Shown: positions 27,444-45,312, counted from the first letter of the stretch. The stretch is DNA of 64,000 nt from Vicinamibacteraceae bacterium (GCA_012270995.1 JAAXHG010000051.1:5768-69767), one strand, 5' to 3'. Notes: generated by a model not told the origin, from the sequence alone. Numbers and translations are program-made.

Positions 27444-27703
27444 GTGTAGAGTAAGGCCGTCCGATCCGACCGGACCGCCCCGCCAAGAGTACGCGAGAGA
27501 TGGCTGAAACAGGAACAGGGACCGAAGCCCCGCCATTCAATGAGGACTGGATCGCGTGGCGCGCGCGAGTGGACGAGAAGCTCCGAAACGTGGCGACGAA
27601 GGAGGATCTCGCCAACCTCCGCGAGGCGCTCACGTGGCGCATCCTGCTCGCCATGGGCGGTTTCGCGACGATCGTGACGGTACTGGACCGGCTGCTTCCG
27701 TAG
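27444..27703 (+). repeat. left copy of direct repeat flanking the defence island (leader + small gene B)
   Basis: Starts GTGTAGAGT...CCGGACCGCCCCGCC and runs through the small ORF. It aligns by eye with 45008-45312 (about 80-85% in the coding part) apart from a 33-nt indel. Confidence 0.7.
27500..27703 (+). CDS. small coiled-coil/TM protein (paralog B)
   Basis: MAETGTGTEAPPFNEDWIAWRARVDEKLRNVATKEDLANLREALTWRILLAMGGFATIVTVLDRLLP. Near-identical to paralog C. Confidence 0.6.
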   Translation: MAETGTGTEAPPFNEDWIAWRARVDEKLRNVATKEDLANLREALTWRILLAMGGFATIVTVLDRLLP

Positions 27704-27734
27704 CTGCCGATCACCCGCGGCTGGAGGTCGCGGA

Positions 27735-30629
27735 CTACTCCTCGGCGACCTCGACCCGCACGCGATCGACCAGGTTCAGATCTTCCAGGGCCTGCCTCAG
27801 TTCGCGGGCCAGGGCTTCCGCGTCGATTCCGTCGGTCGTGGCGTCCAGCGCAACGTTCGCCCTGAGGTCTCGAACCGACCCGGTCCGCAGCTTCGGCAGC
27901 AACCGCGTCCCGACGCGGTTCCATGCCTCGGGGGGAATCTCGCCGCGCACGCTCAGGCGCGCCGCGCGGGGCCGAGCCTCGGGGCCCGGCCGCCGCGGCG
28001 CCGCTTCGTCCTCGGACGACGTCTCGTCGGTGGGCGATTCGGCGGTTCCGCCGAACGTGTCTTCGAGCTCCTGGTCCATCGCCGCGTCATCGTTCGCCTT
28101 CAAACGCTCCGCGGCGTCCTTCCGAAGCAGGCAGAGGTCCGGCTCGAACATGACCTCCTCGGCGGGCAGCCGTTCCCGATGCCAGACCCGCCGCGGCGAT
28201 CCGTCCGCGTTCGCTCCGACTCCCGAGGCCAGCCCGAACTCGCCGGCTTCGACCCACTCGACGACCTTGCCGCGCAGCACCTCGTCCGGGTCGACGAGTC
28301 GCGTCAGCGAGCCGTCGAGGAAGCACTTCCGCAGCATCGCGAGCGGCCAGACGCCGCTCGCGGCGTGAGCCGGAGGCCAGTTTCGCTCCAGATAGCCGGC
28401 GCCGACCGAGTCGTTCAGCAGGGCGTTCGACTTGAGCGCCGCCACGACTCGGCCTGACAGGCTGGAGGCGCTGCTCGAATGGCCGGCGCCCAGGTCGATC
28501 ACGGCGAGACCGTCGGGCGTGCCGCCGTCGGCGTAGACGACGAAGCGGAAGTCGCCCCAGACTTCCTCTCTTGCCGCGTCTTCGGCCTGGCGCACGCGGC
28601 TGGCGACGTCCGCTCGCTCCGACGCCTCGATCTCGGCGCCCAGGGCGCCGGCCTCGATCTCGGCCGCCACGCGCTTCCAGGCGAGCCATTCCTCGACCTT
28701 GTCGCGCAGACCGCGGCCCGGCTTCTTTACCGCCCAGACCAGGGCGCCGGGATAGAGACGGGCGGAGTCGCCGCGCGAGCGGGTCCAGCGGGCGATCCGC
28801 TCCCGCACCTTGCCGTCCCGGTCGCCGGACCACTCCTCCTCCGGCGACGCGACGACCAGCGTGAGCCGCGGCGAGTCCGGCACGGCCGCGCCGTCCGTCG
28901 GGAAGTACACCCGGGGGATTCCCGCGCCGCGGTCGAACCCCGCCTTCACGAGTTGGCGGATCGCGGGGCGGATCTCGTCCTCTTCGTCGAGCGCCGCCCG
29001 CCGGTCGCTCACGACCTTGCGGATCGTCGGCTGGTAGTGAAGCCGGAAGCCGTCGCCGCCGATCTTGCGCACGAAGTACGCCCGCCGCTCGAGCTCCAGG
29101 GCGGCGCTGTCGATGGACGTCGTGTCGACGTTCGGCTCGCCGAGGGCGAACCGGAGCTCCGGCAGGCGCGCCACCTTGTCCACCTGGCCGCCGGAGGACT
29201 CGAACAGCAGGGCCGTGCCGACGCGCCGGTGAATCGAGCGCAGCGGTCCCTTCGTGTCCCGGTCCAGGCCTCGGGCGTGCGCCTGCGGACCCGCGATGTC
29301 CGCGTCGATCGCCGTAGCGAGTTTCTGCTCGCCGAGCTGGCCGAGCACGACGCCGACGAAGTCCCGGTCGTGGAGCGGAGCGGACCCGAGCGTGATCAGG
29401 GGTTCGGTGCGAGCCTGCCGGAAGCCGTTCCGCTGCGCCCAGGAGATCCACTGCGCGAGCATGGCGAGCGTTCCGCGCGTTTGCTGAAACTGCGCCAGCG
29501 CGTTCCACTTGCGCTGGAAGACGGAGAGCGTGGCCGGGTGGAACGGGTAGCACGCTTCGAATCGCGCTCGCAGGTGCTCGCGGGCCTTCTTCTCCGTGGC
29601 GGCGCTGTCCACCAGCGTCCATTCCGGCGGCAGGCGGTCGCGGCGCTCGAAGCACCAGTCCGCGTAGGCCTTCGAGACTCGCTTCCGGATTCTCTCCGGC
29701 CCCTCCGAGTCGAACAGGCGCCGCCGAACCACTTCGCTGACTTCCGCCTCGTCGTTCGCGATCAGGTCCTTCGCGACGCGGCGGACCACCTTGCCGAGCT
29801 TCTCTTGCCACCGCAGATCGAAATCCGTCATCTCCACCTGGCTTCGGGGCAGGCTGATCACGGCGGCGCCGCGGGTCGAGCCGGTCATCGCCACGGTCAG
29901 GTTCTGGATGAAGGCGTGGAACGAGTCCGCCATTCCGCGGTGGCGGTTCACGAAGTTCAGCACTTCGTCGAACAGCACGAGCACGGGCGCCCCGGCGGCC
30001 TCGAACACGCGGCCGAGCGCTTCGGTCCCGGGGGGCGTGGTGGCCGCGGCGGGTCCGAGCCGCGCCGCGCCCTCGGCGCCGGCAAGCTGGCGGGCGACGT
30101 CGATCCACGGCGTCTCCCGCCCATGGCCCGGGTCCCAGGCGTTGCCGACGAAGACCGCGATCCGCGCGGCCGGCGCTTCGCGCAGCCCGGCCTCCCGCAG
30201 CAGGTCCCGCACCTCCGGGAGGCTCGCGACCTTCTTCGAGGACTGGACGAGGTAATAGAGCGCGGTCAGGGTGTGCGTCTTGCCGCCGCCGAACTGGGTG
30301 ACCAGGGTCATCACCGGGGCGGCGTTCGCCGTCTCGCCGGAGAGCCTCCGCAGCACCATCCCCGCGTGATCCTTGAGCGCCCGCGTGAAGCAGGTGCGGG
30401 CGAAGAAGGCCTCCGGATCGCTGTAGTCCTCCGGCGCCGTGCCGGCGACCACCTGCTCGAGCGCGATGGCGAACTCGTCGGGATGGAACGACCGTCCCTG
30501 CCGGACTTCCCGTCGCGGCTGGGCGACCTTGTACCAGGGTTCGAGGGTCATGAAACTCAGCGTCTCCTTGCCGGGCGTTTCATCGGTTTCCTCGGGCGCA
30601 GAGGCTGCGGTTCCCGAGGAGTCGATCAT
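27735..30629 (-). CDS. DUF499-type P-loop ATPase (defence-island core component)
   Basis: N-terminal LEPWYKVAQPRREV...FHPDEFAIALEQV, Walker A TQFGGGKTH and Walker B VLVLFDEVLNF, as I recall for DUF499 proteins. The alternative start at ATG 30551 (MTLEPWYKV) would remove the 50-nt overlap with the upstream PIN-like gene. Confidence 0.8.
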   Translation of the reverse strand: MIDSSGTAASAPEETDETPGKETLSFMTLEPWYKVAQPRREVRQGRSFHPDEFAIALEQVVAGTAPEDYSDPEAFFARTCFTRALKDHAGMVLRRLSGETANAAPVMTLVTQFGGGKTHTLTALYYLVQSSKKVASLPEVRDLLREAGLREAPAARIAVFVGNAWDPGHGRETPWIDVARQLAGAEGAARLGPAAATTPPGTEALGRVFEAAGAPVLVLFDEVLNFVNRHRGMADSFHAFIQNLTVAMTGSTRGAAVISLPRSQVEMTDFDLRWQEKLGKVVRRVAKDLIANDEAEVSEVVRRRLFDSEGPERIRKRVSKAYADWCFERRDRLPPEWTLVDSAATEKKAREHLRARFEACYPFHPATLSVFQRKWNALAQFQQTRGTLAMLAQWISWAQRNGFRQARTEPLITLGSAPLHDRDFVGVVLGQLGEQKLATAIDADIAGPQAHARGLDRDTKGPLRSIHRRVGTALLFESSGGQVDKVARLPELRFALGEPNVDTTSIDSAALELERRAYFVRKIGGDGFRLHYQPTIRKVVSDRRAALDEEDEIRPAIRQLVKAGFDRGAGIPRVYFPTDGAAVPDSPRLTLVVASPEEEWSGDRDGKVRERIARWTRSRGDSARLYPGALVWAVKKPGRGLRDKVEEWLAWKRVAAEIEAGALGAEIEASERADVASRVRQAEDAAREEVWGDFRFVVYADGGTPDGLAVIDLGAGHSSSASSLSGRVVAALKSNALLNDSVGAGYLERNWPPAHAASGVWPLAMLRKCFLDGSLTRLVDPDEVLRGKVVEWVEAGEFGLASGVGANADGSPRRVWHRERLPAEEVMFEPDLCLLRKDAAERLKANDDAAMDQELEDTFGGTAESPTDETSSEDEAAPRRPGPEARPRAARLSVRGEIPPEAWNRVGTRLLPKLRTGSVRDLRANVALDATTDGIDAEALARELRQALEDLNLVDRVRVEVAEE

Positions 30630-31053
30630 GGCTTTTCGTGTACTCGCTGCCGTGCAAGGTCGTGTAGACCTTGCCGCGGGGTTGGTCGATCAGATCCTTG
30701 TTCTTGAAGTCGCGCTGGAGGGCCCGGTCGTTCGAGTAGAGCAGCCGGGCGCCGCCTACCTGCGCCGCGGCAATCAGATGTTCGTCGTCGGACCGACAGA
30801 TCCGGGCTTTGCGGAGTTCGATCGCCCTGGCCTCGACTTCGTCATCGTTTACCCGGAGAATCCGACCTTGTTGAATAGCCTCCCGATACCAGACGTCGAA
30901 CCTTGAGTGTGTCCTGAGTTCATCGTGAATCTGCCTTGCTACGATCAACTTGCCGCGTCCTCGGGTGATCCAGTTGAAGAACGCGTGGGCGGCCGCGGAT
31001 CGGTCGGCGGCGAGAACGTCGCCAACGGCGTTGGCGTCGAGCAGCGCGCACAT
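30580..31053 (-). CDS. PIN-like nuclease domain protein
   Basis: 157 aa. The acidic pattern D6 (LLDANAV), D44/E45 (IHDEL), D89/D90 (SDDEHLIAAAQ) and N108/D109 (LLYSNDRALQRDF) is spaced as in PIN domains. It starts 5 nt after the upstream ATPase stop. Confidence 0.5.
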   Translation of the reverse strand: MCALLDANAVGDVLAADRSAAAHAFFNWITRGRGKLIVARQIHDELRTHSRFDVWYREAIQQGRILRVNDDEVEARAIELRKARICRSDDEHLIAAAQVGGARLLYSNDRALQRDFKNKDLIDQPRGKVYTTLHGSEYTKSHDRLLGNRSLCARGNR

Positions 31054-31058
31054 TGCCG

Positions 31059-32396
31059 TTACAGGCCCAGTGACCGGTTGACTTCCTCCATGAAGAAGCG
31101 CCTGTAGCTCTGCGGCGCGTCGAGCACGTTTCCCTGGTCGTCCAACCGCAGTGAGTAGATCCGGAAGCCGAGGTTCTGTCGTTCGAAGTAGAGGATGGAC
31201 ACATCCTCCGGCGATAAACGACCATGGCCGTCGCGAACGTCCATGCGGACTCGATCCAGCAAGTGGTCGCTGTGGGTCTCGACGACGATTTGCCGCTTCC
31301 AGGACGCCAGGCGGCAGAACAGACTTCCGAATGCGGCCTGGGCTTGTGGGTGCAGGTGAACTTCGGGCTGCTGCAGAAGGAACATGGAAGTCCGTCGATC
31401 CCGGAAGAGCTCGGTCAATACGGGCAGCACCTGGCTGACGCCGTAGCCGACGTCGATCAGGTTCCGCGATGGGCCCTTCGCTCGCTTGCCGTACTTTCGG
31501 ATCTGCACCTGGAACGGCTCCGTACCCTTCTTCCCGAGCAACCGGACGTCGAGCTCGTCGAAGAGGCCCGCCTGCCGGCCGAACGCCTCCAGTGCGCCTT
31601 TCAGCTTCGTCCAGGCTCGCCGGTCCTCGACGAAGAGGGACGACAGGTAGGTGGGGATCGTCTCGCCCTCCGGGGCCGCCGTGGGCCGCGCGGGGTCGTA
31701 GGTCCGGCGGGGCTTCGAGCGAACAGGGGCGCTTGCGAAGAGCCTCTGCCCACTCGGAAAGAACGGGGCGATGGTCTCCCGCAGGTGGTTCCAGTCCCGT
31801 TCATTGGGGAGCGGCGAGCCGGCCGTTGGCTGGGCGCTGTCGCGCTCCGGCAGGAAGCTCAGGATCAACGGGAAGGAGAGTTGGGGATTGCCGGGGAATT
31901 GCTCTCCGAGCCAGCGCCTTGGCCAGGACCACTGCCCCCGGACGGTACGAAAATAGACCCTCGCTTCGTCCTGTTCCGGCGCGCCGACCTCGACAGCCGC
32001 ATCTCCGGTCGAGATCGCCCACCTGTGCGGAACAGGCGCCGTGCCCTCTTTGCGGAACGACAAGGCGAACGTCCGGTCTAGCGGCCGGGCAGGGCGGCCT
32101 CTCTTGGGTCGATTGTCCAGGTCGTCTCGACGACGGAACTCCGCGTGGAACTCCGTTGCGCGGCCGCCCCGTCCGCCGCGAAAGTGCGCAATCTCGTCGA
32201 AGCTGCCGAGATCGTAGGGCGGGGCCTTGAAGTCTGGAACTCGCTGCTCATACGCGGCTTCCCACAACGCTCGGATCAGGGCCAGGAACGACGTCTTGCC
32301 TGCGCTGTTCTCCCCGACCAGCAGGGTCAGCGGCGCCATGCGGGTCTCCTGCCTCTCGCGGAAACAGCGGAAGTTCTCCAGGGCGATGTGATTCAT
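31059..32396 (-). CDS. ABC/SMC-like AAA ATPase (AAA_15/21-type, DUF3696-like C-terminus)
   Basis: Walker A LVGENSAGKTS, signature-like DVGYGVSQVLP, Walker B MFLLQQPEVHLHP, H-loop ETHSDH. The C-terminal tail ...PQSYRRFFMEE is reminiscent of DUF3696. Confidence 0.75.
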   Translation of the reverse strand: MNHIALENFRCFRERQETRMAPLTLLVGENSAGKTSFLALIRALWEAAYEQRVPDFKAPPYDLGSFDEIAHFRGGRGGRATEFHAEFRRRDDLDNRPKRGRPARPLDRTFALSFRKEGTAPVPHRWAISTGDAAVEVGAPEQDEARVYFRTVRGQWSWPRRWLGEQFPGNPQLSFPLILSFLPERDSAQPTAGSPLPNERDWNHLRETIAPFFPSGQRLFASAPVRSKPRRTYDPARPTAAPEGETIPTYLSSLFVEDRRAWTKLKGALEAFGRQAGLFDELDVRLLGKKGTEPFQVQIRKYGKRAKGPSRNLIDVGYGVSQVLPVLTELFRDRRTSMFLLQQPEVHLHPQAQAAFGSLFCRLASWKRQIVVETHSDHLLDRVRMDVRDGHGRLSPEDVSILYFERQNLGFRIYSLRLDDQGNVLDAPQSYRRFFMEEVNRSLGL

Positions 32397-32522
32397 CAGA
32401 TGAACTCGGGCAGTGCTGGCTCCGGGAGGCCGGGGAGGGGCGGTGCGTACTGTACAACCAGCCCGCGTACGGGGTCGGAACAGCGAACCGTTGAGCGTCC
32501 GGGCCTCTTCATTGGCTGCTGC

Positions 32523-32795
32523 TCAAGCCTCTGCTGAGGCGTCACTGGCCGGCAAGCCGAGCGCGTCGGCGATCAGGTCCAGCTTCTCCGTGACCTCCGG
32601 ATGGATCTCCTCGGGCCGCATCTCCGCGGCAAGCAGGTAGAGGTCCTTCTTCAGGGTCGACTGGCCAAGACGCTCGAAGAGCGGCACCAGGAACTCGTTG
32701 CTCGCCTTGACGCGAACCAGGGAGACGTGATCGCCGAAGAGGTCCGTGCCGGTTGGCACCTGCTTCCAGAACTCGTTATCGACTTCGGCGCCCAT
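32523..32795 (-). CDS. 90-aa ORF, either an independent small gene or the frame-shifted C-terminus of the upstream ATPase-Toprim protein
   Basis: The frame carrying ...SPPLFEESMGAEVDNEFWKQVPTGTDLFGDHVSLVRVKASNEFLVPLFERLGQ... has protein-like composition. It overlaps the last 20 nt of ORF 32776..34227. Confidence 0.35.
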   Translation of the reverse strand: MGAEVDNEFWKQVPTGTDLFGDHVSLVRVKASNEFLVPLFERLGQSTLKKDLYLLAAEMRPEEIHPEVTEKLDLIADALGLPASDASAEA

Positions 32796-34227
32796 GCTCT
32801 CCTCGAACAGCGGCGGCGAGGAAACGGGTGATGGCGCCCGGCTGGAGCAGGTAGTTCTCGACCTCGTAGCGTCGCCAGCGAAGCACGCGCAGGCCGGAGG
32901 CGGTCGTGGAGTCGTCTGGTTGGCCGCGGTCGTCCCCATCCAGGAGACACACGGCCCGCAGGTCGGGAACGACCGCCTGCATGGCGAAGTAGTGGCTCCT
33001 CGCGTCGTGCAAGTTGCTTCCGCGGAGCCAGTGGACGAACGGTCGGTCGAAGAACGCCCGCGCCGGGTGTTCCAGGATTCGCGCCCACTCGCGGAGGATC
33101 TTCTCGTCCGTCTCGCCCTCGACGTAGATGACGGCACGCACTTCGCGCGCCTGAAGGAGTTCCGTCGTCGTGATTCGTTTCAGCGCCTCGCGTACGGCGT
33201 CCCGTTCGACGGGGCTCGTCAGGGCGCGGGGCGTCTCGCCAAGGAAGCCGATGACCCGCTCGGGCGCCGTCGCGTCGAGCACGACTTCCGAATGGGTGGC
33301 GAGGATCACCTGACCGCCACGCTCTCTGGCGACCTTGCGGATCAGGTCGTAGACCTCGCGTTGCAGGATGACGTGTTGGTGCGCGTCGGGCTCGTCGAGC
33401 AGGATGACGGAGGCGGGACGAGCGTAGAGGAAAGCGAGGATCAGGAGGACCTGAAGCGTGCCGCTGCCGACGTTCGCCAGGTCGAGCGGGCGCCCGCGTC
33501 CCCGTTCTCGATACTCGCTGACGATGAAGGGCTGCAAGGCGGAGTACACGGGTCTTTGCAGCTCGATGCGGAAGATGTCGTCCATGGACCGCGAGAGACT
33601 GCGCCAATCGTCACCATCCGTCCTTGCCGAGACCTCGTAGAGAAGATTGCGCAATATCTCGCCAGGCCTTCCCTGGCCGATGAGCAGGTCCTGCAAGCCG
33701 ACGTCGCGTCGGGGCTCTTCCCGCTCGATTCCCGAGAAGGGCGGCACGAAAACGATGTCGAGATTCCTGGCCGCCGCCGGAGGAAACTGCTCGATGTCCG
33801 CCGGCGACATGTCCTTTGCGCCCCGCGGACGCACGTAGAGCATCTCGCGGTTCGCGTACTGGAACTCCATCCCGCAGGTCCAGGCGCCGTTCCCGTCCTG
33901 GCCTTCGACCACGATCTCGATCAGGCGGCGCGCGCCGGCCATGCCCGCGGGCCCGGCGACCCGGCGGTCTTCCCACAGCAGATTCACTTCGCGCAGCGGC
34001 ACGGCCGTGAAGTCGTTGCGGGTGATCGCGACGCCGGACCGCTTGATTCCCCGGCCCGTCTCGCGTTCGGCGACCCAGCGATCGAGGGCGAGCTTCCAGG
34101 CCGAGATCGCCTGCAGCAGGGTGGACTTGCCGGAGTTGTTCGGCCCCGCCAGAACGACGGCGTCGCCCAGATCGAAGGACTGCTCGCGGAAGCTCTTGAA
34201 GTTGCGGACTGTCAGTTTCCTGATCAT
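32776..34227 (-). CDS. fused ABC-type ATPase + Toprim/DUF4435-like nuclease (PARIS AriA-AriB-fusion-like or class 1 OLD-like)
   Basis: Walker A LAGPNNSGKST, signature NVGSGTLQVL, Walker B VILLDEPDAHQH, ATHS. Then Toprim-type VIYVEGETDEKIL, LLDGDDRG and YEVENYLL. Confidence 0.75.
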   Translation of the reverse strand: MIRKLTVRNFKSFREQSFDLGDAVVLAGPNNSGKSTLLQAISAWKLALDRWVAERETGRGIKRSGVAITRNDFTAVPLREVNLLWEDRRVAGPAGMAGARRLIEIVVEGQDGNGAWTCGMEFQYANREMLYVRPRGAKDMSPADIEQFPPAAARNLDIVFVPPFSGIEREEPRRDVGLQDLLIGQGRPGEILRNLLYEVSARTDGDDWRSLSRSMDDIFRIELQRPVYSALQPFIVSEYRERGRGRPLDLANVGSGTLQVLLILAFLYARPASVILLDEPDAHQHVILQREVYDLIRKVARERGGQVILATHSEVVLDATAPERVIGFLGETPRALTSPVERDAVREALKRITTTELLQAREVRAVIYVEGETDEKILREWARILEHPARAFFDRPFVHWLRGSNLHDARSHYFAMQAVVPDLRAVCLLDGDDRGQPDDSTTASGLRVLRWRRYEVENYLLQPGAITRFLAAAVRGEHGRRSR

Positions 34228-34338
34228 TCTGACAACAAGGATGTGCGGCTGAGAAAAGTGTGCAACAAGACGTCAATGTTGCAATGTCGTTGAAATGTTG
34301 GCGCGGCGTATTGCAATGTTGGCGCAGCGATGTTGCTT
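34228..34338 (-). promoter_or_regulatory. AT-richer intergenic region with TGTTGC repeat array and palindrome (candidate internal promoter/operator)
   Basis: TGCAACA (34261-67) N10 TGTTGCA (34278-84) with a central GACGTC. ATGTTG at 34276, 34295, 34316 and 34330. Exact 11-mer AATGTTGGCGC at 34294 and 34315, 21 nt apart. It lies immediately upstream of the ATPase-Toprim gene. Confidence 0.35.
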
Positions 34339-37300: not shown

Positions 37301-37506
37301 CGCGGGTCGCACGGGTCGGGCAGCAGCAGGGCCAGCAGCACCGCCCGGCTCGACGCCAGCGGTCGCCGCGCCCACCACAGATGGAGGGTCGAGGGATGCC
37401 CGTGCCGGATCGATTTCTCGCGCGCCGCGTGCTTCGACACCTCGGCGATGGGGAAGTCCACCTCCGCCAGCCGCCTGCACTCGCGGGGGATTCCGGCGGC
37501 CGTCAC
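34339..37506 (-). CDS. DUF1156-type DNA methyltransferase (N6-A or N4-C class)
   Basis: N-terminal EVDFPIAEVSKHAAREKSIRHGHPSTLHLWWARRPLASSRAV (DUF1156-like), SAM motif VVDPFAGGGSIP, catalytic WFTDPPYYD, and two Cys pairs (APDCGAE, CLCCGS). Confidence 0.85.
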   Translation of the reverse strand: MTAAGIPRECRRLAEVDFPIAEVSKHAAREKSIRHGHPSTLHLWWARRPLASSRAVLLALLLPDPCDPRCPEEFKRRAREFLSPVRQPPKSDAELRRALLWFIGSFANWDMAAHPTYLRVGRNLVRAAHGGDDPPLVVDPFAGGGSIPLEALRLGCEAFASDLNPVACLILKVMLEDIPRHGPGLADELRRVGADIKAAAQEKLADLYPPDPDGATPIAYLWARTARCEAPDCGAEIPLMRSFWLCRKPKRKWALRPTVERPTGAAARSTRGFESASAGNRHDAFPAAPWPAEQPDRASVPCRSEGAQDAPNAAPGTGAPLPASDGTPRVEFEVFQPDADEDVAAGTVSRARAVCLCCGSVLPPERVRAQLSAQRGGADAVFDEAGNRTGGARMTAVVTVRPDEKGRRYRLPTEEDYAAVRRAQERVAALLDDWERGGRQGLCPAPDEPLPRIGTLGFRVQRYGMLEWGHLFTARQKAALNGLVDLMLRTKCSDQERLLACCLSRVAMSDMSCTRWNAVAEKMQHTFGRQALPIVWDFAEVVVTAPGPGNWESAYRLPSDVVDASCSRSAGQVQPADATHHPLPDETVGVWFTDPPYYDAIPYSDLSDFFLVWLKRTLPGHTLLRDPFDPANPLSPKAAEAVQDETKEVDGRPKDRTWFEETMGRAFAEGRRVLRHDGVGAVVFAHKTTEGWEALLSGMIRGGWTVTASWPLATEMGSRLRARDSAALATSIHLVCRPRPEDAPVGDWADVLRELPVRVGDWMERLQGEGVRGADLVFACIGPALEIFSRYSRVETADGAEVALPEYLEKVWEVVGRTALENVLGSEEAKARNGLAGALEEDSRLTALFLWTLQATAPADDGAGKKKRAEAETDENRASAPPGRFGYSLAFDVVRRFAQPLGIDLPKWEKRIVETKKGVVRLLPIAERAKRLFGGSGAEDFADRMEQPGASPQLDLLQAAHLGDRELAAARGGRRSRGTAADRVEADADATTLDRVHVAMLLQRGGRTQALRNLVAAERERGPDFERLANALSALYPRGSEEKRLLDAMLLALPG

Positions 37507-37570: not shown

Positions 37571-38221
37571 TCACTGACCCCATCGTCTGGAGTCGTCGAT
37601 GGTCACGATCTCGTCTCCCCGGTTGACGAACACGACTTCAAGCGCCTCGTCCGGTTCGAGATTCTCCGCGACGCGTTGCCGAATCTCAGCGAGTACGTCG
37701 TCGGACCTCGGAACGGCGGACAGATCGCCGCGCACCCTGGCAAGGGGCATGGCGCCCAGACCCCGACCGCGTATCTGACCGTCAGGCGTGGAGACGTAGC
37801 AGCGGGCGCGAAAGGTAGGAGAGCGACCCGATTCGCCGCCGGCCGCGGCGGCGTCGGGAAGCTCCCGTCCGGGTGGCGGCGCCTCTTTCGCGGCCGCTCG
37901 CGCCACCGAGCGCTTCGACCCGAGCAGCAGGCTCTCCGCCCTTTCCTGCGCTTCAAGGGAGACTTCCCACGCCAGCGACGAGTGGTAGTCGAGCGGAAGA
38001 ACCGTGAGAACATCCCCGTTCTCCTGGTCCTGAACCGCGACGAAGCACTGTTCTTCGGCGGGGCTGAAGAACAGCCGGTGGAGGTGACCGGACTTCGCGC
38101 CCACGAGAACCGCGAGGTCGTGATCCAGGATCGCGGTCACTTCGTCGGGCGCCATCGACAGCCGGTCGCCGATTCGTTCCTGCGCGTGGCGGGTGAGGCG
38201 GGCTGGTGGAGAACCCGTCAC
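37571..38221 (-). CDS. 216-aa protein of unknown function immediately upstream of the methyltransferase (position where DUF3780-type proteins occur in such loci)
   Basis: The GTG at 38221 overlaps the HEPN-1 stop (GTGA). The N-terminal LTRHAQERIGDRLSMAPDEVTAILDHD... has a HAxER-like motif. The family assignment is not secure. Confidence 0.5.
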   Translation of the reverse strand: MTGSPPARLTRHAQERIGDRLSMAPDEVTAILDHDLAVLVGAKSGHLHRLFFSPAEEQCFVAVQDQENGDVLTVLPLDYHSSLAWEVSLEAQERAESLLLGSKRSVARAAAKEAPPPGRELPDAAAAGGESGRSPTFRARCYVSTPDGQIRGRGLGAMPLARVRGDLSAVPRSDDVLAEIRQRVAENLEPDEALEVVFVNRGDEIVTIDDSRRWGQ

Positions 38222-38607
38222 AGGCTGTCTTCCGCCCAACGCACGACGGTTTCGGCGATTTCGAGTGCGTCGGCGTACTGGAGATCCGAGACCCGGTCGT
38301 CGAGCCCCGGGTAGCGGGTTACCGATGCGTAGCGAGTCAGTTCCCTGGCCGACTTGACCGGCTCGGGCACTGCTTGCCCCGCGTCGCCAAGCAGCGACAG
38401 CAGGAACACAAGGTCGTGAACGTACGGAAACTCGACGCCCCGGGCTACCAGCAGGGCCTTGATCGCCTTCTCCGCAGCCTGTTGCGCATGAAAGCAGAGA
38501 TCGGCGAGATGGACGCCATCGGGTCGGCTCCGCGCCAGCGTCAGATCGCTCCGGGCGCGGTCCATCCACCTGTCTGGATCGCTCTCTGGCAGCGGGTCAG
38601 ACGGCAT
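38218..38607 (-). CDS. HEPN domain protein (copy 1)
   Basis: WMDRARSDLTLAR, DLCFHAQQAAEKAIKALL, ELTRYASVTRYPG. This matches the HEPN type that pairs with minimal nucleotidyltransferases. Confidence 0.75.
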   Translation of the reverse strand: MPSDPLPESDPDRWMDRARSDLTLARSRPDGVHLADLCFHAQQAAEKAIKALLVARGVEFPYVHDLVFLLSLLGDAGQAVPEPVKSARELTRYASVTRYPGLDDRVSDLQYADALEIAETVVRWAEDSL

Positions 38608-38926
38608 CGTAGACGACTCTCCCTTCCCGCAGCGCCGGCTTGAACACGAGCGAGTGGGTGTCGCGATGCCGCTCGACCTGCTCCGGCGAGGCGACGATGA
38701 CCTCGACCGGCGCGCCAACCCCGAACAGGTTGCCGTAGATGTCCGCCGTCAGCCGGTGCGCGTCGTCCGTCTCGGCAACGACCAACAGGTCGACGTCGCT
38801 GTGCGGGCCCATCTCGCCCCGCGCGGCGGAGCCGAACAGGATGATGCGCTCCGGCGCCGCGATCTCCACCACCCGCCGAACGATGTCGTGGAGTACGCGC
38901 GGGTCGAGAGCGCCGGTGGCCGTCAC
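38597..38926 (-). CDS. minimal nucleotidyltransferase (MNT-type antitoxin-like)
   Basis: RIILFGSAARGEMGPHSDVDLLVV (GSxxRG...DxD). The GTG at 38926 overlaps the HEPN-2 stop (GTGA). Confidence 0.8.
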   Translation of the reverse strand: MTATGALDPRVLHDIVRRVVEIAAPERIILFGSAARGEMGPHSDVDLLVVAETDDAHRLTADIYGNLFGVGAPVEVIVASPEQVERHRDTHSLVFKPALREGRVVYDAV

Positions 38927-39354
38927 AGGCTGGCCTCCGCCCACTGAACCACGGCCTCGGCGAGTTCGACCGCTTCCTGATACTCCGAATCGGTCACCGG
39001 CTCGTCGAGCCCGGGATACCTGATCGAAGTCCCGTACCGCGTCAGCCCGGCGGCGCGGCGAACCGCTTGGGGGATCTCCAATCCGTCCGCCTGAAGGCGC
39101 GCGGTCAGTTCCGCCAGGTCGTGGACGGAGTGGAAGTCAATGGTGCGTTGAGTCGACACCGCCTTGATCGCCTTTACGGCTGCCTGCTGGGCGTCGTAGC
39201 ACAGGTCTTCGAGGTAGACGTCCGGCATCCGTGCACGAGCCCTGAGGAGGTTGCTCCTGGCGCGATTCAGCCACTCGCGGGGATCGTCCGGCGGATAGCG
39301 CTTGAGCGCTTCCTTGCAGTACGCGCCGGGCTGCTTGTCGGCTGGCCGGCTCAC
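38923..39354 (-). CDS. HEPN domain protein (copy 2)
   Basis: WLNRARSNLLRAR, DLCYDAQQAAVKAIKAV, GLTRYGTSIRYPG. Paralog of copy 1. The GTG at 39354 overlaps the stop of the DUF262 gene (GTGA). Confidence 0.75.
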   Translation of the reverse strand: MSRPADKQPGAYCKEALKRYPPDDPREWLNRARSNLLRARARMPDVYLEDLCYDAQQAAVKAIKAVSTQRTIDFHSVHDLAELTARLQADGLEIPQAVRRAAGLTRYGTSIRYPGLDEPVTDSEYQEAVELAEAVVQWAEASL

Positions 39355-41471
39355 CTGCCGCTCCAACGTGTCTGGATGTAGCGCACGGCCTCGGGGATCG
39401 GGAGGGAACGCGTGGCGTTGCCCACGCGCAGCCAGAACAGGGACTGACCCTTCCGCTCCACGTAGACGGGGTGGTCGCTGGGCTCGACGGTGACCTGGCA
39501 GATGTCGGCGCCGTCGATCTGGTGGAAGTTCACCACGATGGAGTTCGAGGCCGTCGCCTCGCCGAACGCGTTGACGAAGAGCTGCTGCAGATGGTTCTCG
39601 AAGCCGTCCCTGTCGGGCTTGCGCAAGCTGCCGTAGTCGCGCTCGAGGCCGGTGGGCTGGCCGTCGTCGGCCACGCCGATCAGCAGGGTCCCCCCCGAGG
39701 CGTTCAGGAACCCCGCCACCGTCTTCAGAGCGACCCCTTCCAAGCCCTTGTTGGTGCATTCCCGGTGGAGGTCCCAGCGCAGGCTGGACTTGAACTCCAG
39801 GTCGTCGCTCTCTCCGCCTCGAATCAGCCCGCGAACGTACTCCTCACCGTTCGGGTCCGGCCGACTTGGCAGCCACGACGCGATGAACTCGTTCGCGGCT
39901 TCGGCCAGCAGGCGGCGGCGCGCGGCGAGGAAGTCCAGGAAGTTCTCCGGGCGCCAGAGCTCCGGGTCCATCGGCACGGACTGGGCCGCCAGCGCCCCGG
40001 GCTGGTTGTCGTTCACTTCGAGCAGGTAATCGGCCGGCGAGACGTTGCGGAGCTCCTTGGGAGCTTTCTGGCCCAGGACGACACGGTTCGCCACCGCGTT
40101 GATTCGGCGGCCGTCTTCCATGCCGGCACTCAGGAGGACCTTCCTCGGAAAGACGTAGTGGCGCTCGCCGCCCGTACTCTTCCCGAGCGCCGCGTCGTAG
40201 ACGCGAACGCCGGTGAACCAGTCGCGGGCCCCGCGGTGCCTTGCCAGTACCCGCACCAGGTAGGCGACGGCGGAGCGGACGGTCGCCCGGTCGAGATCGC
40301 CCTGCTCCAGGACCAAACGGCCTCGTTCGCGGAGGATCGCGGCTTCCAGCTCGTGCGTCGGGTCGGGGTCGCCGGTAGCGACCAAGGCCACGTCCTGTTG
40401 CAGCTTGGTCTCGGTGGCGCCGCTGTAGCGTCCCCAAAGGCCGGCGAGGAACATCCAGCGGATGAAGCGGCGCCGGATGTCGTCGCCGGGGAACTGCCCG
40501 CCGTGGCGCGAGAGGTACACCGTCATCAGGATGACGACGTTGTTCGTCGGCAGGTCGTCCAGACTGTCGACGAGCGCTTCGTGGCGGAGCACCCCCACCA
40601 GGTGTTCGAGCGCCGGCTTCAGCTTTTCCCAAGCCTGCTGGTGGACTTCCGCCGGCGTCTGGAAGAAGGACCCCTCGAGCGCGACCGATCCGGCGCCGAC
40701 GCCGGCGAGGCAGCGAGTCAGCAGGTCGAGGCCGAAGGCGAACCCCCGTTCCTCCATCCTGTCGCTGAAGGCGCGGAACTCGCCCCGGGCCTCGGGCCAC
40801 AAGCTGCATACGTGGGCGATCGCCAGGTCCGCCTTGGTCAGCGGGGTGCCGGCGCTGTTCACCCGGTTGAAGATGCCGACGACGTCGTCCACGTCGTAGT
40901 CGTCGCCGGAGACGTGATCGACGGCGTAGGTGTAGTTCCGGATGGCGTCCAGGTCGGTCAGCGCGGCCAGGTTGTTCTGCAGGGTGGCGCGCTGTTCCTC
41001 CTCAAGGCTCGGAAACTCGCGGAGGAAGTCGCCCAGACCCCGCCGAAGGAACTCGTGGACGCTGATCCAGGCAGGGTTGTTCTGCATCAACGACTTCTGG
41101 AAGAAGCGGAATCCGCCTGTCTGGACATTGAAGTGGAGGTCGAAGAAGAGGGACTCGCCCTCGTAGAACGGCGGCGGCTTGCCCTTGAACAGGGTGTAGA
41201 GCGAGGTCAGCCGCTGTTGGCCGTCGAGCAGCAGGAGCGAGTGGCCGTCGCGGCTCTCGGCGCTTCCCCGCACCCGGAGCGGCTTGTAGGTCTTCCAGAT
41301 CAGCAGGTGCCCGGTCGGATGACCCTTGTAGAGCGAGTGCATCAGCCCGCGCACCTGGTCTCTCCGCCAGACGTAGCCGCGCTGGAACTCGGGCAGGAGG
41401 ATCTCGCCCCGGTCGATCTGGGTGAGCAACTCGTGGATCTGTCGCGTGTCAGGCATTCGGATCTCCAGCAA
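39351..41471 (-). CDS. DUF262 (ParB/Srx-like, GmrSD-type) + HNH-like + C-terminal AlbA_2/Schlafen-like domain fusion
   Basis: LLPEFQRGYVW and LLDGQQRLTS (DUF262). ERHYVFPRKVL...NAVANRVVLGQKAPKEL (H..FP/N..N, His-Me-like). C-terminal ESDDLEFKSSLRWDL...VAGFLNASGGTLLIGVADDG (AlbA_2-like), approximately 39402-39818. Confidence 0.8.
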   Translation of the reverse strand: MLEIRMPDTRQIHELLTQIDRGEILLPEFQRGYVWRRDQVRGLMHSLYKGHPTGHLLIWKTYKPLRVRGSAESRDGHSLLLLDGQQRLTSLYTLFKGKPPPFYEGESLFFDLHFNVQTGGFRFFQKSLMQNNPAWISVHEFLRRGLGDFLREFPSLEEEQRATLQNNLAALTDLDAIRNYTYAVDHVSGDDYDVDDVVGIFNRVNSAGTPLTKADLAIAHVCSLWPEARGEFRAFSDRMEERGFAFGLDLLTRCLAGVGAGSVALEGSFFQTPAEVHQQAWEKLKPALEHLVGVLRHEALVDSLDDLPTNNVVILMTVYLSRHGGQFPGDDIRRRFIRWMFLAGLWGRYSGATETKLQQDVALVATGDPDPTHELEAAILRERGRLVLEQGDLDRATVRSAVAYLVRVLARHRGARDWFTGVRVYDAALGKSTGGERHYVFPRKVLLSAGMEDGRRINAVANRVVLGQKAPKELRNVSPADYLLEVNDNQPGALAAQSVPMDPELWRPENFLDFLAARRRLLAEAANEFIASWLPSRPDPNGEEYVRGLIRGGESDDLEFKSSLRWDLHRECTNKGLEGVALKTVAGFLNASGGTLLIGVADDGQPTGLERDYGSLRKPDRDGFENHLQQLFVNAFGEATASNSIVVNFHQIDGADICQVTVEPSDHPVYVERKGQSLFWLRVGNATRSLPIPEAVRYIQTRWSGR

Positions 41472-41519: not shown

Positions 41520-44500
41520 TCAACGGTCGCTCCGGCTGTCGGACGCTGCGCTCAGCTTCTCCACGTCGAGATAGTAATGCTGCACCTTCTTCACCTCGAT
41601 CCAGGGCCTTTGCGCCGGGTTCGGGACGGGGTCCCGGAGAACCGGATCGCCGGCGCAGTCCGTGACCACGTACAGCCAGTAGCAGTCCCGGCGATCCTCG
41701 GCCACGCGGCGTTCGTTCGGGGTGAGCACGATGGTCCCCGAGCGGGCGGCCAGGCCCTTGACCTCGATCAGTCGGAGATCGCCGGTCACGGGATCGAGGC
41801 TGGTCACGTCGTAGCCGAGGTTCTTCGCGCTCACGTCTTTCGTGCGCCGGCCTTCGGCCTGTTCGTGCTCCATCGCCACGCGCATCGCCGTCGCTTCGGT
41901 TTCGGGGTGGGGCTGGTGTCGCTTGACCTCCGCCGCGTCATGGCCCGGATGGGGCAGGACGAGGGCGCTCGCGATCCGCTCGACGTTCTGCAAGGAGAGC
42001 GAGCGCTGACGCCCCATCTCCTCCAGTCGCCGGTCGCGACGGGCGGAGAGCTCGTCATGCCGGAGTTCAGCCATTCGGAGCCGGCCTTCCGCGCCCTGGC
42101 GGCCGTTCTCGACGTCGAGAGCCGCGCGGCCGACCTCACCGTCGGCCTGGTTCAGGAGCTCGGTGAGGGACCTCTCGACGTGCTCGGCCACGCGCTCCAC
42201 CTCCGCCGCGCGGTTCGCCCGCGTCTCTTCGAGCAGCGGGAGGAGAGCGTGCTCGTGCAGCCAGGCTTCGGGCGCCGGCGCGTGGGCGATCCCCGGAAGC
42301 GGGTCGGCGGGGGCCACCGGCGTCAGATCGCGGAGGACGCCGGGCTCGCGGAGTCGCGGATCGCCGTCGTCTCCCGGCAGTTCCACCGCCAGGAGCTTCT
42401 CCCGGACGACGGCGCCGAGGCCGTCGACGACCTGGGCTCGGTAGAAGTCGATCCGGGCGGGCAGATCGTGGGCCAGCGAGTGGAAGGTCGCGCCGGACGA
42501 GAGCGGGGCAGCCGCCCGGTCGCGGATGGACCGGCGGACCGCCTCGAACAGCGGGTGGCCGGGCGTGACCCACTCCAGCGCGTGGTCCCGGGCGGTTTCA
42601 CGGTCCGTCGTGCAGCGCGGGTAGCGGTTCGCGAGCTCGGGCAGGCGCCAGTCGCCCTCCCGCTCGTGCCGGCGGAGGCCGGGCGGCGTCCGGCCGGGGT
42701 CGAACGCGTGCCGCAAGCGTCGGCCGCCGACGAAGCGGAGCTCGAGAGCCGCGTGGGGCGCCGCCTCTCGAAGAAAGCGGGCGATCGTCTCCGGCACGAC
42801 CCGTCGCTCGCGGGCCCGGGCTCGGCGTTCGACCAGCATCTCCAGGTTCAGTTTCTTCGAGGCGAGGCCCTCCAGCGCGTTCCGACAGATGTTGCGGAAG
42901 CGGGTCTCGTCCACGTCCCGCAGCATGCGTTCCTGCAGATCCTCCTGGCCGAGCCGGCCCGCGTAGTAGTCGCGCAGCAGCCGCTCGATCCGGGAAGCGG
43001 ACAACACCTCGCCGACGACGTTGAAGACGGCGTCGTCGTCCAGCGCGTCGCGAATCTCCTTCAGCTTGTCGAGCAGGCGTTCGAGGACGCGGCCTTCCAC
43101 GGTATTCGTGGCGGCGAAGTTGAAGATCAGGCAGTCCTTCTCCTGTCCGTAGCGGTGGATGCGGCCCATCCGCTGCTCGAGGCGATTCGGGTTCCACGGG
43201 ATGTCGTAGTTGAAGAGGATGTTGCAGACCTGCAGGTTGATCCCCTCGCCCGCCGCTTCGGTCGCGGCGAGCACCTGCACGGCGCCTTCCCGGAACTGCT
43301 GCTCCGCGTGCAGCCTGGTCCCCGGCTCGTCGCGGCCGCCCGGCTTCATGCCGCCGTGGATCGTGGCGACCCGAAAGCCCCAGCCTTCGAGTCTTTCGAC
43401 CAGGTAGTCCAGCGTGTCCTTGAACTCCGTGAAGAGCACGAGCCGCTGCTCGGGTCGGTCGAAGAAGCCCTCGTTGCGCAGGAGACTCTCCAGTTTCGCC
43501 AGCTTCGCCTCGACGCCCAGGCGTTCGACGGCTCGCGCGCGGTCGGCGAGTTGGCGCAGTTCGACGATCTCCATCCGGACCTCGGCCGCGTTGTTCGTCA
43601 GGCTGACGGCCTCCAGCAGGGCGAGGATCCGTTCCCTCTCGCCCTCCTCCATCTCGTCCATCTCGTCCATGGAAGGCAGCGTCGGGGGCGCGGCGGCCGC
43701 GAGATCCCGCGCCTCGGCCAGAGCTCGTTCCAGGCGGTCCGCGCGGTTGGCCAGGCTCCGTCTCAGGGCGCGGGTGCTGGACGCGAGCCGCCGCTGGTAG
43801 AGCGCCATGAGGAAGCCGAGGGCGCGTCCGCGGGGGTCGTCGCGGGCCGCGGCCAGGGCGCTCTGCCGCTTCACGAAGTCGGTCACGGCGCGGTACAGCT
43901 CGTACTCCGCGCCGTCGATGTCGAACCCGACGGTCGTGGGGATGCGCTTGGTGAAGATCGGCCGGGCGGCCCACTCGCCGTTCTCATCCCGATGGGGGAA
44001 GTGGACCATCGCCTCCTTCGTCCGCCGCAGGTAGAACGGCGCGCGCCCCCGGTGCAGGGCGTGGCGGATGGAGGTGACGCTGGCGTAGGCGTCGCGGTCG
44101 AGAAGCTGGAGGAAGAGGGAGAAGTTCTCCTGGTCGCCCTTGTGCGGCGTCGCGGTCAGCAGCAGCAGGTGGTCGGAGGTGTCGCGAAGCAGCTCGCCCA
44201 GCTTGTAGCGCTGGCTCTTGTGGGACTCGTCCCGCGCCGACATCCGGTGCGCCTCGTCGACGACGACCAGGTCCCAGCGGGCCTGCCGCAGGCCCGGGAG
44301 GATCTCGTCGCGCTTCGCCAGGTCGAGCGAGGTGACGATCCGGTCGCGGTCCATCCACTGGTTGACGCCGTACTGGGCGCGCAGTTCGGCGCCCTTCAGC
44401 ACGACGAAGCTCTGGTCGAACTTCTCGCGCAGCTCGCGTTGCCACTGGAAGGTGAGGTTCGACGGGGCGACGATCAGGATGCGTTCGGCCAGACCCCGCA

Positions 44501-44939
44501 ACTGGAGCTCGCGCATCAGCAGGCCGGCCATGATCGTCTTGCCGGCGCCGGCGTCGTCGGCGAGCAGGAAGCGCACGCGCGCCGGCTTGAGCAGGTGGTC
44601 GTACACGGCTTCGAGCTGGTGGGGCAGCGGGTCGACTCGAGAAACCGAGAGCCCGAAGTATGGGTCGAACCGCCATGCGATGCCGAGCGCGTGGGCGTCG
44701 AGGCCGAGCCGGAGCAGTTCGCCGTCGCCGTAGAAGCCGAAAGCCGTTGCGCTGGTCTTGAGGGCGGCGAGTTGCCGGGCTTCGAGGGAGACCCGCGTGA
44801 AGCGCTGCGTCCTCGTGCCGACGAGACCGACGTTCCAGCCGCCGGAACCGTTCGGCGCCACGGTCTCGACCCGCATCGGTTCGCTGAACAGCGGTCCCGT
44901 CAGGACCTGGCCTTCCTCGGGCGGCGCGGGCTGGTTCAT
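41520..44939 (-). CDS. SNF2-family helicase with C-terminal DUF3883-like PD-(D/E)xK nuclease domain
   Basis: Motif I LLADDAGAGKT, II VVVDEAHRM, III LLLTATPHKG. Helicase-C GEGINLQ...YDIPWNPNRLEQRMGRIHRYGQ. C-terminal GYDVTSLD...LRLIEVKG...YWLYVV. The longest ORF reaches 45116 but would overlap the divergent small gene, so ATG 44939 (MNQPAPPEEG) is preferred. Confidence 0.85.
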   Translation of the reverse strand: MNQPAPPEEGQVLTGPLFSEPMRVETVAPNGSGGWNVGLVGTRTQRFTRVSLEARQLAALKTSATAFGFYGDGELLRLGLDAHALGIAWRFDPYFGLSVSRVDPLPHQLEAVYDHLLKPARVRFLLADDAGAGKTIMAGLLMRELQLRGLAERILIVAPSNLTFQWQRELREKFDQSFVVLKGAELRAQYGVNQWMDRDRIVTSLDLAKRDEILPGLRQARWDLVVVDEAHRMSARDESHKSQRYKLGELLRDTSDHLLLLTATPHKGDQENFSLFLQLLDRDAYASVTSIRHALHRGRAPFYLRRTKEAMVHFPHRDENGEWAARPIFTKRIPTTVGFDIDGAEYELYRAVTDFVKRQSALAAARDDPRGRALGFLMALYQRRLASSTRALRRSLANRADRLERALAEARDLAAAAPPTLPSMDEMDEMEEGERERILALLEAVSLTNNAAEVRMEIVELRQLADRARAVERLGVEAKLAKLESLLRNEGFFDRPEQRLVLFTEFKDTLDYLVERLEGWGFRVATIHGGMKPGGRDEPGTRLHAEQQFREGAVQVLAATEAAGEGINLQVCNILFNYDIPWNPNRLEQRMGRIHRYGQEKDCLIFNFAATNTVEGRVLERLLDKLKEIRDALDDDAVFNVVGEVLSASRIERLLRDYYAGRLGQEDLQERMLRDVDETRFRNICRNALEGLASKKLNLEMLVERRARARERRVVPETIARFLREAAPHAALELRFVGGRRLRHAFDPGRTPPGLRRHEREGDWRLPELANRYPRCTTDRETARDHALEWVTPGHPLFEAVRRSIRDRAAAPLSSGATFHSLAHDLPARIDFYRAQVVDGLGAVVREKLLAVELPGDDGDPRLREPGVLRDLTPVAPADPLPGIAHAPAPEAWLHEHALLPLLEETRANRAAEVERVAEHVERSLTELLNQADGEVGRAALDVENGRQGAEGRLRMAELRHDELSARRDRRLEEMGRQRSLSLQNVERIASALVLPHPGHDAAEVKRHQPHPETEATAMRVAMEHEQAEGRRTKDVSAKNLGYDVTSLDPVTGDLRLIEVKGLAARSGTIVLTPNERRVAEDRRDCYWLYVVTDCAGDPVLRDPVPNPAQRPWIEVKKVQHYYLDVEKLSAASDSRSDR

Positions 44940-45007
44940 CGGAAGCGGCACATTGTACGCCCGCGGCGGCGTGAGCGTAGAGGCGTCGCCATGCTGATCG
45001 ATCGGCG

Positions 45008-45312
45008 GTGTAGAGTCGAGGGCGTCCGGTTTGGCCGGACCGCCCCGCCCCAGCCAGAACAGGAGAATCCAAGGCATGGCTGCAACAGGAACGGGGGCCG
45101 AAACCCCGGCGCTCAACGAGGATTGGATCGCGTGGCGCGCGCGCGTCGACGAGAAGCTGCGTCACGTGGCGACGAAGGAGGACCTCGCCAACCTCAAGGC
45201 CAATCTCAAGGAGGACATCGCGAGTCTCAGGGAGGCGTTGACCTGGCGGATCCTGCTGGCGATGGGCGGGTTCGCGACGATCGTGACGGTGCTCGACCGG
45301 CTTCTCCCGTGA
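45008..45312 (+). repeat. right copy of direct repeat flanking the defence island (leader + small gene C)
   Basis: Same GTGTAGAGT...CCGGACCGCCCCGCC leader and coding sequence as 27444-27703, plus 33 extra nt (KANLKEDIASL). Confidence 0.7.
45076..45312 (+). CDS. small coiled-coil/TM protein (paralog C)
   Basis: MAATGTGAETPALNEDWIAWRARVDEKLRHVATKEDLANLKANLKEDIASLREALTWRILLAMGGFATIVTVLDRLLP. AGGAGA lies at 45061-45066, upstream of the ATG. Confidence 0.6.
   Translation: MAATGTGAETPALNEDWIAWRARVDEKLRHVATKEDLANLKANLKEDIASLREALTWRILLAMGGFATIVTVLDRLLP

Follow-up and report, generated by a model that had tools for sequence, protein, structure and literature searches.

The stretch of DNA analysed here, 64,000 nt from a Vicinamibacteraceae bacterium (GCA_012270995.1 JAAXHG010000051.1:5768-69767; hereafter the window), carries at 27444-45312 an island of defence genes lying between two direct repeats, B and C, each of which contains a small open reading frame (ORF). 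The island lies between a sodium:solute symporter gene and an M14 carboxypeptidase gene, and we consider it probable that the gap between these two conserved genes is an integrase-free defence hotspot, in which B and C are both part of the variable DNA, C arrived later than B, and the turnover of cargo does not proceed through recombination between the two. The initial annotation had suggested a recombination-based gain/loss hotspot, as distinct from a classical mobile element, in which a host gene was duplicated and the cargo sits between its two copies; the general idea of a variable, integrase-free site stands, but the role given to the repeats does not. Features and coordinates are collected in Table 1.

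The comparison draws on metagenome-assembled genomes (MAGs) of Thermoanaerobaculia (Acidobacteriota), many from sponge or coral-reef samples, with loci coded L002-L068; about 25 loci were used for the hotspot itself, which is defined by its symporter and M14 peptidase flanks. These two genes are syntenic throughout the relatives, with 85-96% amino acid identity for the symporter and an ABC transporter operon following the M14 gene, and a promoter-like TAAACT/TACACT box situated 7 nt upstream of the M14 start codon is conserved in all of the genomes. The limits of the variable segment are given by the minimal empty sites L032, L035 and L038, which read ...ACGGTAAGGGGTTCC TAG GGCTACACT..ATG, with the symporter stop codon directly abutting the M14 promoter-like box and with no small gene. 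The 3' end of the symporter gene in the window is identical to the L035 type in all of its sense codons, and divergence sets in exactly with the stop codon; because the departure from the minimal empty sites begins there, the variable segment is bounded by the symporter stop codon and the M14 promoter, with both repeats inside it. Contrary to what had been proposed, the duplicated copies do not frame the cargo, in that a decayed higA lies outside B, and C is flanked by a degenerate M14 start on one side and a spacer on the other. A blastn search of 44940-45463 against all of the loci returned nothing past the C stop codon.

At least six different states are found between the symporter and the M14 gene in about 25 loci. 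A single small gene of the B/C type and no island is present in L002, L004-L008, L019, L021 and L022, which is the empty site predicted in the initial annotation, and also in L058; L030, L032, L034, L035/36 and L038 have neither a B/C-type gene nor an island. The window has a Hma (helicase-methylase-ATPase) island with two small-gene copies, and this bracket is not seen at the other occupied sites: the complete L068 locus (GCA_026707325.1) is ordered M14 - 56 bp - HmaA to HmaC - higA remnant - one small gene - symporter, and L056 has a complete Hma island and no small-gene copy. Other loci are known from one junction or are decayed. At the right junctions of L054 and L055, HmaA is 73-129 bp from M14 with no small gene between them; L031 has symporter - higB - higA - HmaC, also with no small gene, and L057 has symporter - truncated higB - small gene - HmaC. 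In L039 the order is symporter - higA - 194-aa gene - HEPN - HmaA stub - M14, again with no small gene, and in L059 it is symporter - small gene - HmaC stub - nucleotidyltransferase (NTase). Alternative cargo, whose existence had been anticipated, consists of a Type ISP restriction-modification (R-M) enzyme directly after the symporter in L029, and of an insertion sequence (IS)-like gene with weak HTH and rve matches in L020, the only relative to break the integrase- and transposase-free pattern. Between the closely related L021 (empty) and L068 (occupied), the difference is a clean indel located on the right side of their single small gene. Two kinds of defence therefore occur at the site, Hma (window, L068, L031 and L054-L056) and Type ISP R-M (L029), and Hma is found here in at least seven other lineages without duplication of the small gene. 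With its conserved flanks, variable content including empty sites, more than one defence system, and no integrase, transposase or tRNA in the window, the locus has the properties of a core defence hotspot.

The description of B and C as direct repeats is borne out by an exact alignment (27444-27703 against 45008-45312; MAFFT, 305 columns), which gives 86% column identity, and the pair was recovered independently in a repeat scan of the window (families D1 and D3). Both units begin with GTGTAGAGT and end at their stop codon, the latter having been noted earlier for the left repeat, and the DNA beyond them on either side is unrelated. By segment, the leader is 73% identical and the coding sequence (CDS) 87% identical in its 5' part and 83% in its 3' part, and the longest identical runs are 20, 20, 13 and 12 nt. 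The 33-nt indel reported in the coding region is confirmed; it is in frame and corresponds to a single 11-residue coiled-coil unit (KANLKEDIASL), and a further 11-nt indel is present in the leader. The two copies differ at 14% of positions with a synonymous divergence (dS) of 0.56 and a nonsynonymous to synonymous ratio (dN/dS) of 0.10; they are old paralogues under purifying selection. Judged by these sequences, the direct repeats represent a small gene specific to this lineage, present as a pair of functional paralogues, and they are neither att sites, target-site duplications nor edges of the variable DNA. The exact C protein is encoded on eight contigs, one of them a 137.8-kb scaffold.

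The two copies appear to differ in their history at this site. Over the leader and the 5' CDS, the nearest pair is B and the small gene of L057 (93-94%), with C outside them (73-88%) and other lineages more distant, and the L057 gene, which is the orthologue of B in the same position, has 92.5% amino acid identity to it. Between the window and L057, B has a dS of 0.26, against 0.25 in the symporter and 0.22 in HmaC, and since B matches its flanking genes, the symporter-B-HmaC junction has been vertically inherited since the two lineages split. The divergence between B and C exceeds that of the symporter between the window and any sampled relative (dS 0.17-0.30). On these comparisons B is the older resident, adjoining HmaC.

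The small-gene alleles are significantly mosaic, from which it follows that homologous exchange, between lineages or between paralogues, does occur within the gene. Mosaicism was assessed from informative sites using the maximum chi-squared (max-chi2) statistic with permutation p values. B groups with L057 up to approximately column 274 (window position ~27633); over the ~70 nt that remain, 10 of 13 sites place it with the L021/L023 haplotype (max-chi2 37.6, permutation p<0.0005). When B, L057 and C are taken as a triplet, L057 joins C from column 280 onwards, over the last ~65 nt (p=0.005); because this allele sits next to HmaC, we read it as gene conversion and not as the product of a deletion. 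The haplotype switch at the 3' end of B was also considered as a trace of the import of an L023-like island and rejected, as neither the sequence following TAGCTG nor the HmaC end is L023-like.

Directly to the left of C lies a degenerate duplicate of the M14 promoter, start codon and first codons. It aligns collinearly with the start of the M14 gene both in relatives (L068, L054, L021 and L039) and in the window (45449-45481), the window segment reading TAGAGGCGTCGCCATG-CTGATCGATCG-GCG where M14 starts read TACACTCGCGCGATGCCTGATCGA-CGCGCG, and it sits exactly at the position of the M14 start in genomes in which HmaA abuts M14. The observed alignment scores were reached by 1-28 of 1000 shuffles. 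Because a duplicate of ~30 nt of the M14 start flanks it on the left, C together with its 136-nt spacer (45008-45448) appears to have been inserted secondarily into the M14 5' end. The state before the arrival of C would have been L068-like, with one copy on the left, and C would have come in on DNA from a relative in which a small gene is next to M14, joined homologously on the M14 side and illegitimately on the other; this one-sided route is the most likely one given the arrangement of the sequences. The outcome resembles those of insertion-duplication, or homology-facilitated illegitimate recombination, in having a short anchor duplicate (M14 promoter and start) beside the inserted C and spacer, and in that the inserted C has diverged from the resident copy; it differs in being read from the sequence of the locus, with an anchor of ~30 nt and an unsampled donor. 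Products of this kind have reportedly been described by de Vries & Wackernagel (2002). A second flank duplication analogous to the one around C is seen in L056 (Ca. Multivorans OZ242040.1), where an insert at 9131-9973 between HmaA and M14, containing an NTase gene and a second higA fragment, has beside it a repeated piece of the M14 N-terminus (aa 32-82).

Several routes could underlie the presence and absence of the island. In the model that builds on the initial annotation, a RecA-dependent crossover between B and C deletes or installs the island and leaves a hybrid small gene. The direct orientation of the repeats, the existence of empty sites with a single small gene, and the exchange tracts within the small gene of L057 and of B all speak for such an event, yet both copies belong to the variable DNA and are lacking from the minimal empty sites, complete Hma islands occur with one copy (L068) or without any (L056), L021 and L068 differ in the island beside a single copy, and B has been next to HmaC ever since the split of the window and L057. 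No sampled empty site joins the upstream flank of B to the downstream flank and spacer of C, as the predicted hybrid would; the L057 mosaic, adjoining HmaC, is a conversion; and no B-to-C joint is present in the Logan contigs of three samples, in which rare variants may have been dropped. With 14% divergence, the identical runs of 20 nt or less are also below or at the minimal efficient processing segment of RecA, reportedly about 23-27 bp in E. coli (Shen & Huang 1986). We regard this crossover as unlikely, and a deletion or insertion mechanism acting through B and C is neither needed nor evidenced. A Campbell-type insertion-duplication, in which a circular fragment with a small gene and Hma integrated by a single crossover in the resident small gene to give two reciprocally chimeric copies, would account for repeats that are exactly one homologous unit with unrelated flanks, for the reciprocal mosaic at columns 274-280 (L057 being B-like upstream and C-like downstream), and for the M14-start remnant against the C leader, which could be the junction of the circle. 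We think it rather improbable all the same: L057 shares the order symporter - toxin-antitoxin (TA) remnant - B - HmaC with dS equal to that of the flanking genes, so that B and HmaC were joined before the split, Hma is present at the site in the at least seven lineages without the duplication, the mosaic tracts are short (about 70 nt), and the 5' part of C does not derive from the B 3' haplotype (type I, L021/L023-like), contrary to prediction. Exchange in the conserved flanks together with illegitimate deletion explains the turnover better than a crossover between B and C. Cargo would be exchanged when alleles of the conserved flanks, those of the small gene among them, recombine, and lost by illegitimate deletions such as those of L039 and L059 and the indel that separates L021 from L068.

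A related and rather improbable proposal gives the whole unit of ~260-305 nt, from the leader of the small gene through its stop codon, the role of a portable homology handle that would guide RecA-dependent swapping, capture and loss of cargo between diverged relatives. The unit is found at module boundaries (between symporter and M14, next to HmaC, next to HmaA, and beside the IS-like gene), it is the one highly conserved stretch within otherwise unrelated hotspot DNA, and its alleles are mosaic; if the proposal holds, the handle, together with the flanking genes and through one-sided or Campbell-type capture, would be a recombination-based substitute for integrase and att sites. That the island is instead an integrative element or composite transposon, with the repeats as att sites or terminal repeats, is very improbable. 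The cargo does lie between direct repeats, and HmaA has homologues at 70% identity or above across many phyla, indicating that the core system has been horizontally mobile over long time; against this, the Pfam and PADLOC scans found no integrase, recombinase or transposase domain in any island ORF and the window has no tRNA or transfer-messenger RNA (tmRNA), in agreement with the earlier reading, and the repeats (260-305 nt, 14% diverged) are whole genes under purifying selection inside the variable segment, relatives carry the same island without them, and there is no break in GC content at the island edges. We see next to no chance that the bracket is an assembly artefact, that is, a chimeric contig or a mis-join at the repeated small gene. 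The source is metagenomic and repeats are typical points of mis-joining, but both island junctions are present in independent assemblies and in Logan contigs (eight runs, three samples), single contigs from separate runs span symporter-B-HmaC (for example X1 record 1, 26800-28280) and HmaA-C-M14 (X1 record 8, X3 record 16), contig depth over the island is similar to that of the flanks in the three samples, the eight contigs with the exact C protein include the 137.8-kb scaffold, and a 14% difference is too large for assemblers to confuse the copies. Other contig joints that had been listed were set aside as evidence, having sides of only 21-42 nt and none of them being B-to-C; a backward joint (45199 to 26800) is best explained as a contig of a gene similar to paralogue A, the small gene upstream of the symporter.

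Several points weigh against the reading of the gap as a hotspot to which C was added late. The comparison genomes are all MAGs or metagenome contigs, and a robust species tree would be needed to tell a gain from a loss in each difference of presence or absence. The small-gene dS values are based on only ~50 synonymous sites and have large standard errors (0.56 +/- 0.15 against 0.26 +/- 0.08). The M14-start duplicate is short (~30-40 nt), with shuffle p values of about 0.001-0.03 in five comparisons that are not independent, and L057 is known at its left junction only, so that C may predate the split of the window and L057. The description of the small genes as functional comes from their sequence; the locus occurs in none of the RNA runs, and three host RNA-seq runs, like the raw-read DNA run X9, gave 0 reads, the organism being absent from them. 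Rare B-by-C deletions could escape contig-level data, which drop rare variants.

The locus is reminiscent of the core defence hotspots without mobile-element marks described in Pseudomonas aeruginosa (cDHS1/cDHS2; Johnson et al. 2023, PMC10250203) and of the E. coli defence hotspots (Hochhauser et al. 2023, PMC10121019), with which it shares conserved flanks, variable or empty content, the lack of an integrase, and a proposed turnover by homologous recombination in the flanks. It differs in its setting in uncultured, largely sponge- and coral-reef-associated Thermoanaerobaculia, in its size range of 0-18 kb, in the dominance of Hma, seemingly old and decaying, and in having a resident small-gene family and TA remnants. 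The principle is familiar from hotspots of Pseudomonas, E. coli and Acinetobacter; here one site is seen empty, occupied, decayed and otherwise occupied, a natural series in uncultured host-associated Acidobacteriota, in which Hma and its cassettes have been kept, remodelled, pseudogenised and deleted at a single chromosomal position. The mosaic alleles and the duplicated M14 start can be viewed as footprints of hotspot editing by homologous exchange and illegitimate joins. A defence island may lie between long direct repeats without being mobilised by them, and small paralogues next to an island can pass for att-like brackets, which calls for caution in annotation pipelines.

Table 1. Features in and around the symporter-M14 gap. 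Positions are those of the window.
Feature	Position	Strand	Remarks
Paralogue A	25342-25557	+	71 aa, upstream of symporter; repeat family D1
Sodium:solute symporter (SSF), conserved left flank	25839-27320	+	Pfam SSF, E 8e-81
Decayed higA antitoxin remnant	27317-27390 (about)	+	Internal deletions; overlaps symporter stop codon
Repeat B	27444-27703	+	Leader 27444-27499; ORF 27500-27703, 67 aa
HmaC, DUF499 ATPase	27735-30629	-	PADLOC HmaC, E 2e-94; Pfam DUF499; NCBIfam DUF499_antiphage; start codon uncertain
PIN-domain gene	30580-31053	-	Weak Pfam PIN
ABC-type ATPase, pairs with PIN gene (HEC-03-like)	31059-32396	-	Pfam AAA_15/AAA_21; PADLOC NsnB, HEC-03B
Second ABC-type ATPase	32776-34227	-	Pfam AAA_21, E 1.5e-26; PADLOC NsnB/AriA-like
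HmaB, DUF1156 DNA methyltransferase	34339-37506	-	PADLOC HmaB, E 6e-104; Pfam DUF1156
Uncharacterised ORF, 194 aa	37571-38155	-	L009 gene call
HEPN	38218-38607	-	Pfam HEPN
Nucleotidyltransferase	38597-38926	-	Pfam NTP_transf_2
HEPN, second	38923-39354	-	Pfam HEPN
GmrSD_N + Schlafen/AlbA_2 protein (HEC-05/BrxU-like)	39351-41456	-	Pfam; PADLOC HEC-05, E 3e-39
HmaA, SNF2 helicase with NOV_C/DUF3883 domain	41520-44939	-	PADLOC HmaA, E 5e-174
Degenerate duplicate of M14 promoter, ATG and first codons	44964-45007	+	Directly left of repeat C
Repeat C	45008-45312	+	Leader 45008-45075; ORF 45076-45312, 78 aa
Spacer	45313-45448	+	136 nt, no match in any relative
M14 carboxypeptidase, conserved right flank	45449-48136	+	Pfam Peptidase_M14; syntenic in all relatives

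The 17.3 kb between B and C contain defence genes, as had been recognised, and every gene is on the minus strand. Genes were assigned using Pfam, PADLOC and NCBIfam profiles, with the gene calls for 37571-39354 taken from the identical contig L009. HmaA, HmaB and HmaC are each present once and on the same strand, in agreement with the PADLOC definition of Hma, and from these profile matches the cargo is a Hma defence system, with a predicted role in phage protection. Unrelated defence genes are nested within it: the PIN gene and the two ABC-type ATPases lie between HmaC and HmaB, and the 194-aa gene, the HEPN/NTase/HEPN genes and the GmrSD-like gene lie between HmaB and HmaA. This organization matches the published Hma systems with embedded cassettes (Payne et al. 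2021; 10.1101/2024.01.29.577857) in the one-strand arrangement of HmaA, HmaB and HmaC, the nested unrelated defence genes, and the variability of the cassettes among loci. Embedded genes are present in 62.7% of Hma loci, HEC-03 being an ABC ATPase with PIN and HEC-05 being GmrSD/BrxU-like (Payne et al., 10.1101/2024.01.29.577857). Nothing essential differs from the published cases, with the addition that one site can here be traced over about 20 relatives, so that a single Hma lineage is seen exchanging its cassettes, turning into pseudogenes and being partly deleted.

The PIN/ABC-ATPase cassettes vary among relatives, with none in L068 and one ATPase in L055, where an 83% amino acid homologue of the second ATPase is embedded. 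The region of 31-34 kb is slightly lower in GC content (65-66%), and the cassettes (31000-34300) contrast with 68-72% in the hma genes and flanks; this is consistent with a more recent acquisition of the cassettes. HmaB and the GmrSD-like gene are broken into two or three ORFs in L068 (13496-19404) and L056 (15373-18548), and these are likely pseudogenes, with frameshift errors in the MAGs being possible. The split ORFs, along with the stubs of L039 and L059, suggest decay of this Hma lineage across several hosts. The Type ISP locus of L029 (12049-18546) encodes an enzyme of 1828 aa and a separate Type_ISP_C fragment, and L033 (3840-4182) may carry similar content after higA.

The remnant of higA to the left of B, which the initial annotation had missed, has blastn matches to intact higA genes in L031, L033 and L039, and its translation is broken; the L031 HigA matches TIGR02607 with 107.8 bits. 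A higBA module lies between the symporter and HmaC in relatives and is intact in L031 (11858-12450). What remains of it is a broken higA in the window and, in L057, no more than the beginning of higB, so the two lineages have lost higBA independently. A 44-bp match at 27345-27388 was considered as an end of the island and rejected, being the 3' end of higA, and a scar of the region upstream of higA in the minimal empty sites L032 and L035 was likewise rejected, in that 'VRGS*' is the native symporter C-terminus across the L030-L038 group.

The small proteins of B and C consist of an N-terminal coiled coil (EDWIAWRxRVDE.LRH.ATKEDLA) and a single C-terminal hydrophobic helix, and are predicted to be small tail-anchored coiled-coil membrane proteins. 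Orthologues are 67, 74 or 78 aa long according to the number of coil units; since these forms differ only by units of 7 to 11 residues (window 45196-45228; L002, L004, L058 and L059), expansion and contraction of the coil repeat is common in the family. The family is tiny and lineage-restricted, with 12 clusters among 5.8 billion proteins searched, and a profile search of 1.84 billion representatives gave 41 matches at E<=1e-3, of which only four are at E<=1e-10. No Pfam family is above threshold for the window proteins, even in a search at E<=10, the best match being XhlA (E 0.048, 14.3 bits against a cut-off of 34.7). Distant profile relatives are small tail-anchored proteins with repeated ATKEDLA units, some of which touch CCDC90-like/DUF1640, DUF2730 and XhlA; they resemble the window proteins in their size of 60-140 aa and in combining an N-terminal coiled coil, in which the number of short repeats varies, with one C-terminal transmembrane helix, but only they reach CCDC90-like, the window proteins being below every Pfam threshold. 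A scan of metagenome contigs with the small-protein profile found only distant paralogues in unrelated contexts.

Further paralogues are present in the same genomes. Paralogue A, also missed earlier, is more divergent than B and C are from one another (47% amino acid identity to B; tblastn E 2e-14). It has orthologues with 76-87% identity at the same position in L003-L007, L029-L039 and L056, and its position is kept in many relatives, including ones without a B/C-type gene. Additional small-gene paralogues are scattered, for example at three loci in OY762911.1 (L020, L028 and L043).

The leaders of B and C are predicted in single-sequence folds to form a hairpin at their 5' end (27459-27476 and 45024-45041), which is present in most clades and absent from the L021/L023 clade. 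Its arms vary by clade yet remain complementary (GUCCG/CGGAC, ACCGGA/UCCGGU, GCCGG/CUGGC and CGGG/CCCG), and it is followed by a conserved CCGCCCCG. RNAalifold gave no consensus structure for the MAFFT leader alignment, and an Rfam search of 25000-46000 at E<=1 gave two chance-level matches, neither of them at the leaders. A scan with the sigma-70 consensus found no promoter at the B or C unit; from conservation alone, TAGAGT is a candidate -10 box.

Two features of the flanking genes and one rearranged locus deserve mention. Upstream of the M14 start codon there is no room for a Shine-Dalgarno sequence (window 45449-45466; L021, L039, L054, L068 and others), and the M14 mRNA may be leaderless. 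In L058 (71-781, one Logan contig) a Bac_transf-like ORF takes the place of the symporter with ~40 nt of the symporter 3' end kept, a further rearrangement with its breakpoint at the symporter 3' end. Upstream of the symporter, a 47-codon ORF (25699-25842) encodes a hydrophobic peptide (MWGGLPISTWALLAVSVGGG...), and its stop codon overlaps the symporter GTG start (GTGA); its product may be a small symporter-associated subunit.

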